From IMG/VR virus record IMGVR_UViG_3300037419_000842: 64,000 nucleotides of DNA. One strand, 5' to 3'. The position numbers and the translations under genes are program-made. The notes under the pieces are model-generated. The model did no database searches and was not told the origin of the DNA. It saw only the letters and a list, made by a program, of their open reading frames with translations. Shown one piece after another: positions 3,615 to 53,024 of this stretch. Numbering within the stretch: the first letter of the stretch is position 1; each line of letters opens with the position of its first letter. The DNA is from a virus.

Positions 3615-4457
3615 TTAAGGTATTGAATTTAAACAAGCATTTAGCCTATTAATTGCAAAGGCGGTTATTGTTTGTCCTGAACTAACAAAAGAAACCTGTC
3701 CTCCCGGCGGATTCATTTCGTTAATTGCGCCAGCAACTTGATTATATAAAAATGCTGATATAGTCGTCCCACTAGAAACTGTATTCATTGTAGTTGTGTT
3801 TAAAAGTTTATATAATCTGAATTGATTTACCCTATTGACAAGAGAATTCCAATCACTTGCCAAAACAACTATCGTGTTTCCTGACACTTTGTTCCCACCT
3901 GTCCATGAAAAATTATTTGGTCTTGGTGGAGAAACAATTACATCAGCGGAAGACGTACCTGAACCAGCAGTTACACCATTAAATGGTGTAACACCTAAAC
4001 TATATGATCCAGCGGACATATTGGTGAAGCCAATACTTGTGCTGGAGGTACTGCCACTACTTATTGTTCCTCCATTTTTTCTCAACGTCCATGAATAGGA
4101 TGTTACAGGAGATGATGCATTCCAACTGAACGATAATGTTGCTGGCTCAGTACCAGATGATGAGCCAACTACTGAAGTTACTGGACTAGGGGCTGGTGGA
4201 GCAGTTGTTGACGCTGTTATTGTGTTGGAACCAAGATCAGTCGCTCCATTATAAAAATGAACAGTCAATGAATAAGTTTGTGATGAATTCAGTCCAGTAT
4301 AAGTATATGAAAATGAATGTGTTGTATTTGTTCCATCTAAGCTTCTACTACCATTAAATGCTCCGTCAGCATAGAATTTTGCACTATCTGCAACTCCAGT
4401 GTATGAAGCATTTACCGTTATTGTTGATTCTGTTGCGCTACTAAATGATAATGACAT
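3615..4457 (-). CDS. Tail-associated beta-sandwich (FN3/Ig-like) protein, 280 aa
   Basis: Ser/Thr/Gly-rich, FN3-like W/Y pattern; C-terminal DWNSLVNRVN motif typical of phage tail accessory proteins; in the tail operon. Confidence 0.55.
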   Translation of the reverse strand: MSLSFSSATESTITVNASYTGVADSAKFYADGAFNGSRSLDGTNTTHSFSYTYTGLNSSQTYSLTVHFYNGATDLGSNTITASTTAPPAPSPVTSVVGSSSGTEPATLSFSWNASSPVTSYSWTLRKNGGTISSGSTSSTSIGFTNMSAGSYSLGVTPFNGVTAGSGTSSADVIVSPPRPNNFSWTGGNKVSGNTIVVLASDWNSLVNRVNQFRLYKLLNTTTMNTVSSGTTISAFLYNQVAGAINEMNPPGGQVSFVSSGQTITAFAINRLNACLNSIP

Positions 4458-34666: not shown

Positions 34667-34912
34667 TTATTTTGACTGCTTTTCGATTGAAACCCATGTT
34701 CCACTTGTATTGCCAATCAGTGCATGAGCATTTTCTAAGGACTTCTTAAACGATCTTGCATCTTCTTCTTGAATGAAAGCTTGATAGCAAATTCTAGTCT
34801 CTCCATGAAATTCTCCAATTCTTTTGCTCCAAGATACAACCCAAACATCAGTTACTTCTACTTCTTTTGTTTCATTTGTCGGAATAGAAATAGTTTTTCT
34901 TTTAAAGAACAT
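34667..34912 (-). CDS. Hypothetical protein
   Basis: 81 aa with RBS GGAG. Confidence 0.6.
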   Translation of the reverse strand: MFFKRKTISIPTNETKEVEVTDVWVVSWSKRIGEFHGETRICYQAFIQEEDARSFKKSLENAHALIGNTSGTWVSIEKQSK

Positions 34913-34965
34913 TGAATCATTCTCCGTTCAATAGTTTTTTATTTGGCTAACAGGCTATATTATAA

Positions 34966-35039
34966 TGGTGCCCTCTACTGTAATCGAAACAGTGACTACG
35001 GGTTACAAAGCCGTTGTTTTACCACTAAACTAAAAGGGC
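34966..35039 (-). tRNA. tRNA-Thr(UGU)
   Basis: ACGG-CTTTGTAAC-CCGT; acceptor GCCCTTT/AGAGGGC; CCA. Confidence 0.85.
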
Positions 35040-35042
35040 ATT

Positions 35043-35136
35043 TGGGGCGTATGACGAGGTACGATCTCGCAAAGGGTCAACAAACCCTTACAGGATTCAC
35101 ATTCCTGCGTGTACTTCCAATCCCACCACACACGCC
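35043..35136 (-). tRNA. tRNA-His(GUG) with G-1:C73 and a long variable arm
   Basis: 8-bp acceptor GGCGTGTG/CATACGCC then CCA; loop ATGTGAA; variable arm AAGGG/CCCTT. Confidence 0.75.
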
Positions 35137-35178
35137 ATAAAAACAACTTTTTATAGTTTAATAAAGTTAATAAAAATC

Positions 35179-35516
35179 ATTTCCTGCCATGACAGCCCTT
35201 TATAAACTGGAAAGGACAAGTCATAACAACCTATGAAATTAAACAAGGGATTTTATCGAATGGGCGTGATACCCAATGTATCACTAAGCCCTGATATTTA
35301 AGACTTCAACGTTGACTCATGTGAATTCTGAGTCGTAAACTTTAAGGTTTGATCTCTGAGCTTTGAGCTTTATATCACATTTTTAATTATCCCCAATGGA
35401 TTAATACTCTGCACGAGTTATCAAATAGTTCCTTTAACAGAACAACCTAAAAGTTGTAAATTTAACGTAATTTACGAAACGTATGAAGTTCTCCAGTTTT
35501 CGTCATGTCAGGAAAT
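35179..35516 (-). ncRNA. Candidate ~340-nt structured ncRNA downstream of the coiled-coil gene
   Basis: 15-bp closing helix (1 mismatch) plus an 8-bp second helix, several internal hairpins and a 7-nt periodic track; no credible ORF. Confidence 0.7.
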
Positions 35517-35611
35517 ATCAATTATTTATTTGCACCTTGCGGGACGCGCCAAGTCATCTTATTCTTATTGCAATAGGGAAGATGACTAGAAACCTAGAGA
35601 CCTATTTGACA

Positions 35612-36238
35612 TTAACCGCTAATTTCAATGTCTGTGCGCGTATTACTCTCACTCAGAAGAAAGTCAGCTTCTTTGTCAAATTCTTCAATCTGCTCAGTAA
35701 GTTTATCAATTGTCTTTTTCAGATCAATTGGATCAATAAACTTAACTTCATTGTCAAGATTGAATCCTTTCGTAATTTCTTCTACGGAAGCTTCTTTGCC
35801 CTTAGTTTCTTTGCCAAGAGCATTCTCAATACGCTTCTCAAGAGCTTGTTTTGCCTTCTCTTGTTCACGTGCGAGAACTTGAAGTGTCGTAGTGTACTGA
35901 GTACGCATCATGTTCAAAGCTTGACGATCATGAACAATTGAATTTTTACGTTCAATTACCTCTGCCACACTCATAACTTTTCCACTAGGGAAAGTTACCT
36001 GAGTGATTGCATTAGATGCAATGATTGCAGATTTAATCTCAGCACGACGAGCGATCAAGTCTCTGATAGATGCAAGAGATGCTTCAGCATTCTTTGCAAA
36101 ATTTTCAGGAGAAATATGACCACCAATTGGTTTAGAACCAACTTGAATACTTACGAATGCCGCTTCGCTAATTGCACGATTAATTCTAGCCTCAAGTACT
36201 CCCAATTCCGACAATGCTCTGTGTACGCTCAATTTCAT
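35612..36238 (-). CDS. 208-aa coiled-coil protein, resembling the DIP1984-like family
   Basis: MKLSVHRAL..L..LEARI; internal pseudo-repeat (MSVAEVIERK; SNAITQV / SNTRTDIEI); IDP motif. Family call unverified. Confidence 0.6.
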   Translation of the reverse strand: MKLSVHRALSELGVLEARINRAISEAAFVSIQVGSKPIGGHISPENFAKNAEASLASIRDLIARRAEIKSAIIASNAITQVTFPSGKVMSVAEVIERKNSIVHDRQALNMMRTQYTTTLQVLAREQEKAKQALEKRIENALGKETKGKEASVEEITKGFNLDNEVKFIDPIDLKKTIDKLTEQIEEFDKEADFLLSESNTRTDIEISG

Positions 36239-44265: not shown

Positions 44266-44434
44266 AACTCGAAATCCAATAGGTTACAAAAATGGACCAA
44301 CTATAATAGATAACTTAATTATTTATTTTACTTTATTATATATAATATCAAATAATATAGTATAAGTATATATATAATAATAATTAATATATATTATATT
44401 TAGTCCATTTTTGTAACCTATTGGTTTTCGAGTT
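44266..44434. repeat. 35-bp inverted repeat flanking a ~100-bp almost pure A/T spacer (origin candidate)
   Basis: Arms 44266-44300 and 44400-44434 with 2 mismatches. Confidence 0.8.
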
Positions 44435-52478: not shown

Positions 52479-53024
52479 TTAAATATGCTTCCATCTCTGA
52501 TTTGTTACAATAAAGGAGATGTTTTGTATTGAAACATTAAACATAATACCTAATTCTTTATACTTGTATTCTCCGCTTTTATATAATTCTCTAATTTTTA
52601 AAACATCTTCTTCATTTAATTTTGATTTAGCATTATCCTTTCCTTTCATCTTAATTAAACCTGTTTCAATTGCATGGCCTATATTTTCTTTTCCTGTACT
52701 CCATTCTAAATTGTCAATATTATTATTGGACTTGTTTCCATCTTTATGATTAACTTCTGGACTATTTTTATCATTTACAATAAATGCAAGAGCAACAAGT
52801 CTATGAACATAATACATTCTTGATTTTCTATTTAACTTTAAATTTACAGAAAGATATCCGTTTTTCCCTTTCTTTGGTTTTAAGATTGAACCTTTTTTAT
52901 TTTGTATTCTATTGTTGGCTCCAATAAACACTCTATCTAAACTTCTTACATGACCAAAATTACTTATCTCATAATAGTCGCCATATTCGACAATACCTTT
53001 TAAACTTTTCCAAATTTCTGTCAT
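52479..53024 (-). CDS. NUMOD4-HNH homing endonuclease
   Basis: EIWKSLKG...YEISNFGHVRS; VHRLVALAF...VNHKDGNKSNN...NLEW. Confidence 0.9.
   Translation of the reverse strand: MTEIWKSLKGIVEYGDYYEISNFGHVRSLDRVFIGANNRIQNKKGSILKPKKGKNGYLSVNLKLNRKSRMYYVHRLVALAFIVNDKNSPEVNHKDGNKSNNNIDNLEWSTGKENIGHAIETGLIKMKGKDNAKSKLNEEDVLKIRELYKSGEYKYKELGIMFNVSIQNISFIVTNQRWKHI

Follow-up and report, generated by a model that had tools for sequence, protein, structure and literature searches.

TRAP reads 9–11 GAG or UAG triplets in the trp leader, separated by spacers of 2–3 nucleotides (nt) and set at a period of 5–6. The GGA motifs of CsrB and RsmZ stand in hairpin loops at irregular spacing, and the operator of T4 gene 32 consists of a pseudoknot beside unstructured A/U-rich repeats that are coated cooperatively by a single-strand-binding protein with a site of about 7 nt. 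Contiguous units of seven are also found in double-stranded DNA, where the omega repressor operators of pSM19035 comprise 7–10 units of 7 base pairs (bp), WATCACW, with one dimer bound per unit. HutP recognizes UAGNNNNUAGNNNNUAG, a triplet followed by four bases, with one subunit of the oligomer on each triplet (PMC2425495). Here we analyze a heptad track in the IMG/VR virus record IMGVR_UViG_3300037419_000842, a 169-kb record detected in soil and rhizosphere metagenomes; the window is the 64,000-nt stretch of it that was analyzed. The track (35286–35371, minus strand) is the core of a pseudoknotted non-coding RNA of about 340 nt downstream of a gene of the family phrog_1491. The element is an RNA family without prior description, and a search of the literature found no account of the heptad RNA or of T5.085, the phrog_1491 gene of Escherichia phage T5.

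The heptad track and its relatives

The track sits in a 476-nt gap free of open reading frames (ORFs), between the gene of a 208-amino-acid (aa) protein (35612–36238, minus strand; phrog_1491, PHROG match E 3e-60, homologue of T5.085) and the genes for tRNA-His and tRNA-Thr. Its minus strand reads exactly as a preliminary description of the window had it: seven 7-nt units, a break of AC and five further units. Each of the 12 units begins with A and has T at position 6, and 11 of them have a pyrimidine at position 7. A thirteenth unit, AGTGATA, follows in phase and keeps the A1/T6 pattern. The same description held that the track is non-coding and not the product of recent slippage, and both statements are borne out. 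Stop codons occur in all three frames, and TRF reports only a 4.6-copy array at 72% matches; the track is therefore no clean tandem repeat.

Judged on the window alone, the 7-nt rhythm is borderline, suggestive and undecisive. The proposed comparison of the autocorrelation with shuffled sequence gives a divided answer. The lag-7 value of the 86-nt segment (0.506) is reached by none of 20,000 shuffles of the segment itself, but it is unexceptional across a window of 64 kb, where a value this high appears at lag 7 in 14% of second-order Markov simulations and at one lag or another within 4–30 in every one. A statistic chosen post hoc, two invariant columns with one indel, counts 13 units in the window versus 8–11 across 60 simulations. 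Runs of at least six A1/T6 units are confined to this one site in the 169-kb genome. At this level, a chance pattern or a decaying tandem duplication without function could account for the track; the simulated windows speak for it, as do the modest TRF array and the identity of the first two units.

The relatives settle the matter, and the heptad rhythm is confirmed. Proteins 50–62% identical to the 208-aa product are encoded on 160–170-kb metagenomic phage contigs, and conserved non-coding sequence follows each gene (nhmmer E 1e-31 to 1e-77). Lag 7, or 7–8, is the strongest autocorrelation in the 5′ part of this stretch in all 10 close homologues, and the heptad series is even cleaner in the most distant member of the close set (L250; protein 39% identical). 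By tblastn the phrog_1491 gene is present in 726 phage records. Cultured phages from clearly different families also carry this gene, and after it 360–500 nt of DNA that lacks annotation and contains a heptad tract. The phages are Bacillus phage JBP901, Clostridium phage D-1873, the T5-like Salmonella phage S124, Escherichia phage T5, Pseudomonas phage phiPsa381, Lactococcus phage LW81 and Vibrio phage Cody. Heptads can be read directly in S124, phiPsa381, LW81, Cody, JBP901 and D-1873. The stretch, which in T5 is located at NC_005859 43063–43504 (minus strand), is retained at 90% identity or above in about 440 T5-like records, almost none of which annotate a feature there.

Absence of the period from homologous loci had been named in advance as the outcome that would count against it; what we observe is its recurrence. 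A search with a single protein found no related loci, and an alignment-based protein search was needed to find 80 further IMG/VR loci, in which the 450 nt after the gene were scanned for the top period. Lag 7 came first in 67 of the 80, compared with 9 of 78 upstream controls, 4 of 77 controls taken further downstream and 10 of 80 shuffled sequences, and the best periodic window begins 98–240 nt past the stop codon. An iterated nhmmer profile built from the window's clade found 87 of the 88 loci next to the gene, in each case on the gene's strand (E values of 4e-16 for T5, 5e-29 for JBP901 and 2e-34 for D-1873), with the caveat that such a profile can drift on repeat-rich sequence.

The constraint is also specific to position. 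The family consensus unit is AAAGTTC (AAAGUUC in the RNA), and positions 1 and 6, which the preliminary description had singled out as a register, are the least variable in four independent clade alignments (0.06 and 0.07, against 0.18–0.35 for the others). U6, Y7 and the A1 of the following unit form a contiguous U-Y-A triplet every 7 nt, so that the tract can be written as UYA-N4 repeated about seven times. A chain parser run over 75 distinct loci finds seven units most commonly (29 loci), with a second peak at 12 in loci that keep the phase across the hairpin. Conservation of the period across phage families whose gene products share only 25–45% identity, the constraint on A1 and U6, and the clustering of unit counts at seven leave chance or functionless decay strongly disfavored, with a next to negligible probability.

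Other periodic sequences were seen in the window. One five-unit A1/T6 run lies at 52532–52566 (genome 140218–140251); it is the only other such run in the genome and is probably due to chance. The strongest short-period autocorrelations of the window, at lags 21, 9 and 27, fall near 2174–2492 (about 2170–2580). Others that rank with these as the strongest, at lags 17, 10, 7 and 5 near 44311 (44300–44330), coincide with an AT-rich inverted-repeat element that had been flagged as origin-like when the window was first read.

Architecture of the RNA

The preliminary description placed the track within a candidate non-coding RNA, and a conserved structured RNA with covarying helices is indeed found there, running from 35516 to 35179 on the minus strand, the strand of all features given below. 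Its fold was worked out on an alignment of nine close homologues (A5) by RNAalifold, our own pair counts and RNAduplex. The RNA is closed by the covarying helices P1, P2 and P3 and by a pseudoknot, Pb. The closing helix P1 joins 35502–35516 to 35179–35193 (16 bp, 99% paired, 11 pairs with compensatory change and 26 G-U cells) and is followed by a U-rich tail at 35169–35178; this pairing had been a lead from a separate note on the window, and the alignment verifies it. In P2, the strand AAAACTGGA (35492–35500) pairs with 35204–35211 over 9 bp, 100% paired, with four compensatory pairs. The 5′ strand of P3 (35478–35489) has the family consensus GAACUUCUAC, which pairs with GUAGAGUUC; its 3′ strand in the window is 35303–35313. 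RNAduplex of the 5′ strand against the end of the second block of heptads (tract II) gives −7 to −12.4 kcal/mol in nine of nine sequences (z −1.6 to −3.7), with compensatory variants.

Between these helices the RNA is divided into domains. Two small hairpins (35442–35475) belong to the 5′ domain and have positional counterparts in relatives, with stems that differ in sequence (alignments A3 and A5). They are followed by tract I (35371–35323), seven AAAGYTC-type heptads without a slip, which is the hallmark of the family, and by a central hairpin with a 6-bp stem and a 9-nt loop (35314–35334). Relatives bear a hairpin at the same site, most of them with a further covarying inner hairpin that is absent from the window. 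Hairpin Pa (35262–35291) has the form GGGC...GCCC around a variable inner stem that covaries between relatives. The conserved linker ATTCGATAAAAT (35250–35261), near-invariant in alignments A2 and A5, is predicted to be unpaired (mean unpaired probability 0.64). Downstream of it, the 5′ strand of Pb (35245–35249) pairs with 35196–35200 (91% paired, compensatory in three of five pairs); Pb crosses P2 and therefore forms a pseudoknot. Hairpin Pd (35213–35232) in the 3′ domain is compensatory in three of four pairs. Taken together, P1, P2, Pa, Pd and Pb are 91–100% paired with compensatory changes, compared with 0.23–0.77 in slid controls.

The placement of the heptads in this fold revises the view of the track as a free register of twelve units. 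Only about seven units, those of tract I, lack a conserved partner; RNAalifold gives them no consensus pairs. Units 6–8 and the AC break make up the central hairpin, units 9–10 contain the 3′ strand of P3, and units 12–13 run into Pa. The second block (units 8–12) mostly overlaps helices and is therefore not a free periodic array. The twelve-unit register is really a seven-unit block followed by helices that happen to keep its phase, and this phase-keeping may be a trace of an origin by duplication.

G-U pairs are invariant or frequent in the helices. On the opposite strand invariant G-U pairs would be A-C mismatches, and the molecule is therefore RNA from the gene's strand. This bears directly on a DNA-level role of the heptads, as iterons or operator sites for a DNA-binding protein or as part of a replication origin. 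Arrays of 7-bp iterons with one dimer per heptad are an established mechanism, that of the omega repressor of pSM19035, whose operators resemble the track in being arrays of contiguous 7-bp units, and several units of the track contain the short palindromes AGCT, GATC and GAATTC. But the tract lies between helices whose covariation includes those invariant G-U pairs, sensible only in gene-strand RNA, a purine-rich asymmetry is kept on the gene's strand in all loci, and the units depart from the WATCACW consensus. An omega-type operator was rejected on the covariation and the consensus, and we regard any DNA-level role as very unlikely. The sequence GATATAAAG immediately 5′ of the tract was considered as a promoter and likewise rejected: strands of P1, P2 and P3 lie upstream, and a consensus promoter scan made no call. 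CtsR heptad boxes (period 10), primase sites, mimicry of an anticodon loop or T-loop, slippery frameshift heptamers and self-complementary duplexes were set aside as misfits to the conserved positions or for want of a supporting test.

A canonical terminator ends the RNA in several distant relatives, and in LW81 about 16 nt separate the stop codon from the 5′ strand of P1; we conclude that the RNA is probably transcribed together with phrog_1491. In the window, a hairpin without a following U-run lies between the stop codon and the RNA (35553–35586, read from sequence). No RNA dataset was listed with the window's own sequence. Metatranscriptome runs of two fermentation studies contain 27–41% of the sampled words of the JBP901 copy, a mere hint of expression.

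A further mark of the family is the 3′ domain, which comprises the UUCGAUAAAAUCC linker, the motifs GGUUU and GGCUG, and Pb. These are invariant blocks in A2 and A5, and the motifs are found also in JBP901, LW81 and Cody; the T5-like S124 has a comparable 16-bp closing helix, read by eye only. All five family features are present in the window: gene adjacency, P1/P2 closure, seven A1/U6 heptads, the 3′ domain and profile homology. The exact 16-nt linker pattern gave about 240 chance matches in viral and metagenome collections and one true relative (L048, whose contig is that of L006). No DNA relatives emerged when the region was compared with the phage collection by blastn. Rfam 15, which includes ROOL, GOLLD, tmRNA, RNase P, 6S and SRP, returned only tRNAs in 34900–35700 at E values up to 10, and no match on the element in six cultured-phage loci at E values up to 0.1. 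The abundant RNA lnc001 of phage K lies next to a tRNA (PMC9241854); it was considered as a member of the family and rejected, having neither heptads nor a phrog_1491 neighbor.

In soil and rhizosphere contigs of a second, related phage, similarity is limited to the conserved 3′ domain (35179–35240) and the P1/P2 region (35486–35517), and between the matched parts 255 different bases replace 245 bases; a relative with a diverged core therefore co-occurs in the same samples. Four soil or rhizosphere runs yielded contigs with near-identical copies only and no informative variants in the track.

A proposed register and its candidate protein reader

We predict, with a confidence a little short of even, that tract I serves as a register in which UYA-N4 sites are bound repeatedly by protein. 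This reading is favored because a triplet with a four-base spacer on unpaired RNA is the geometry of HutP and close to the principle of TRAP. Tract I would present equivalent single-stranded sites, each triplet being read by one subunit (or half-dimer) of a protein that would bind repeatedly or cooperatively, and the flanking helices would hold the tract as a defined loop. The most economical partner would be the phrog_1491 protein, which is favored because its gene is the only one always co-inherited with the RNA, strictly so in the loci examined. In the window and in the relatives examined, the RNA immediately follows this gene, in the same orientation, with one exception. In that locus (L245:3211–3720), the sole non-adjacent one seen, an inserted 169-aa ORF separates gene and RNA. 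As a candidate for the partner of tract I, the phrog_1491 product is put forward tentatively, its chances being clearly below even.

The product itself is modeled by AlphaFold2 as a helical protein (pLDDT 83) and is predicted to form a symmetric homodimer, with a score of 0.67 compared with 0.00 for the best of three controls; the mark applied to this score is reached by 20 of 30 solved homodimers and by 1 of 23 solved monomers. At least 93% of contacts are shared between runs, and pLDDT is at least 90. Fold searches return only unnamed relatives or generic helical bundles. The label "tail fiber" that PHROG attaches to phrog_1491 is probably wrong.

Several observations weigh against a protein-read register with this partner. 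The protein is near neutral to slightly acidic (isoelectric point 5.4–6.7 in 13 of 15 homologues), and searches with PDB Foldseek, AlphaFold Database clusters, VIA wide and the ESM Atlas found no recognizable RNA-binding fold. An odd number of sites, seven, suits a symmetric dimer poorly. With units 6–10 in helices, the free register is short, five to seven units. When sequences are folded singly, tract I is not specially open (mean unpaired probability 0.35), and its predicted partners vary by sequence. The 80 IMG/VR loci that were scanned for the period are phylogenetically non-independent. Finally, sequence conservation of tract I within clades is about equal to that of the helices, which RNA-RNA contacts would explain equally well.

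This last point leads to a role for the RNA alone, in which the heptad block would make tertiary or quaternary RNA-RNA contacts, by homo-oligomerization as in ROOL, GOLLD and OLE, or would pair in trans, with no dedicated protein reader. The tract does lie within a large, multiply closed and pseudoknotted RNA, its sequence is conserved within clades beyond the register, and its neighbor phrog_1491 carries no RNA-binding signature. Large phage-associated RNAs near tRNA genes are reported to build RNA-only assemblies (PMC12286853). Against such a role, the consensus unit AAAGUUC lacks self-complementarity, neither the rest of the RNA nor the 169-kb genome contains a periodic tract complementary to it, and no other column covaries with tract I. 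The strict co-inheritance with one protein gene would also be left unexplained. We consider an RNA-only role unlikely.

The partner could instead be a protein of the host, such as an endoribonuclease or a single-strand RNA-binding protein, for which the tract would act as a sponge or decoy; the phage neighbor protein would then not be the partner. RNAs of the CsrB/RsmZ type titrate proteins in this way, by arrays of short single-stranded motifs. The carriers of the module are virulent, tRNA-carrying phages, and in T5 it lies in the early region, as would fit host takeover. Against a decoy stands the range of hosts, which spans Escherichia, Pseudomonas, Vibrio, Bacillus, Clostridium and Lactococcus, so that the host partner would need to be nearly universal; to our knowledge, Hfq and CsrA are not universal across these hosts. 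The sole constant partner gene, moreover, is encoded by the phage. A host decoy thus also appears improbable to us.

Returning to a register read by the phrog_1491 protein, the result would be a ribonucleoprotein of the phage, with expression from inside or next to the tRNA gene cluster. In its widest form, the proposal is that protein and RNA constitute an unrecognized ribonucleoprotein of many large virulent phages, covering the Demerecviridae including T5, the Herelleviridae, Otagovirus, 949-like lactococcal phages, a Clostridium botulinum phage and soil phages. Its subunits would sit in 7-nt register on the seven UYA-N4 sites of a pseudoknotted scaffold and would act early on tRNA, translation or host-defense processes. 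We offer this as a doubtful reading, to be held more loosely than either the register or the partner. The interpretation in the preliminary description, a ring- or filament-forming protein that binds one unit per subunit and is most likely the adjacent coiled-coil protein, is as a whole partly supported.

Genomic setting and comparison with described systems

The next gene downstream of the RNA encodes a tRNA-His(GTG) of 93 nt with a long variable arm (35043–35135, minus strand; ARAGORN), which the Rfam tRNA model does not reach. In relatives the tRNA-His measures 88 nt (L004:3532–3619), 85 nt (L006:3793–3877) or a normal 75 nt (L002). The slot right after it holds tRNA-Thr(TGT) in the window and suppressor-type tRNAs in L002 (CTA; 3620–3693), L004 (TTA; 3627–3699) and L005 (TTA); these may indicate reassignment or suppression of stop codons in part of the phage clade. 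The gene order HU-like, PIN-PhoH, tRNA-Trp, phrog_1491 and RNA is common to L002, L004, L006, L246–L249 and Clostridium phage D-1873 (L252), whereas in the window the phrog_1491 gene is preceded instead by a GDSL-esterase-like gene and small ORFs, without a tRNA-Trp.

Further RNAs are found close to the element in two cultured phages. In D-1873 a drum RNA (Rfam RF02958; L252:3898–4005; 47.7 bits against a gathering score of 43) follows the heptad RNA at a distance of about 450 nt, within the same 1.2-kb gene-free gap. In T5 (NC_005859), the segment 40848–41566, at the edge of locus L337, is annotated as "rnaX, stable RNA with unknown functions". Its distance downstream from the unannotated heptad RNA is about 1.5 kb, and this part of T5 therefore contains at least two RNAs of unknown role.

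If the proposed ribonucleoprotein is real, well-studied phage groups including T5 carry an unannotated structured RNA of about 340–360 nt, in a family that is widespread among large phages (hundreds). Its design would be one without earlier description: a strict single-stranded register of seven by seven bases inside a knotted scaffold, always paired with one uncharacterized protein gene and usually beside tRNA genes. The family may reveal a new device of phage takeover or counter-defense, and T5 with E. coli is a tractable laboratory system in which its function can be tested directly.

ROOL and GOLLD share with the heptad RNA that they are large, structured, phage-borne RNAs of unknown function beside tRNA genes; the heptad RNA differs from them in its smaller size (about 340 nt), its heptad-periodic core and its tie to one particular protein gene. 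With CsrB and RsmZ it would share the principle that one RNA with many short motif copies binds several copies of one protein, but its units keep a strict 7-nt spacing in one unpaired block. Type III antitoxin RNAs are tandem repeats of about 34–45 nt upstream of an endoribonuclease toxin gene; the heptad units are 7 nt long and downstream of a gene for a helical protein, and this class was rejected. The T4 gene 32 operator is similar in having a folded element beside a repeated stretch, with the regulator encoded by the same transcript. That operator, however, is 5′ of its gene and overlaps the ribosome-binding site, whereas the heptad RNA is 3′ of the gene, does not involve a ribosome-binding site and has its tract enclosed within long-range helices.

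Two further parallels are offered by proteins that read triplets. Like the proposed register, the trp leader presents numerous triplets at even spacing, which wrap around a ring with one triplet on each subunit. TRAP, however, is a beta-sandwich 11-mer, whereas the candidate partner of the heptads is a helical dimer, and the tract has a different triplet and only about seven units; a TRAP binding site was rejected because the period is 7 rather than 5–6 and regular GAG or UAG triplets are absent. The HutP sites in the hut leader/terminator RNA of Bacillus subtilis are alike in having a conserved triplet and four variable bases, a 7-nt period and single-stranded RNA. They differ in that HutP reads UAG or NAG at three triplets per hexamer face, in two sites, whereas the heptad tract has U-Y-A followed by A/G-rich bases in about seven units. 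The HutP array also lies in a terminator, and the heptad array inside a pseudoknotted RNA of 340 nt without a HutP-like protein. A HutP-type antiterminator site (at least three UAG or NAG at 4-nt spacing) was rejected: the spacing fits, but tract I contains no TAG, and its conserved triplet is T-Y-A. Should the predicted register hold, the heptad RNA would add a new case to the few RNAs, those of TRAP and HutP among them, that are read by proteins in a fixed nucleotide register.
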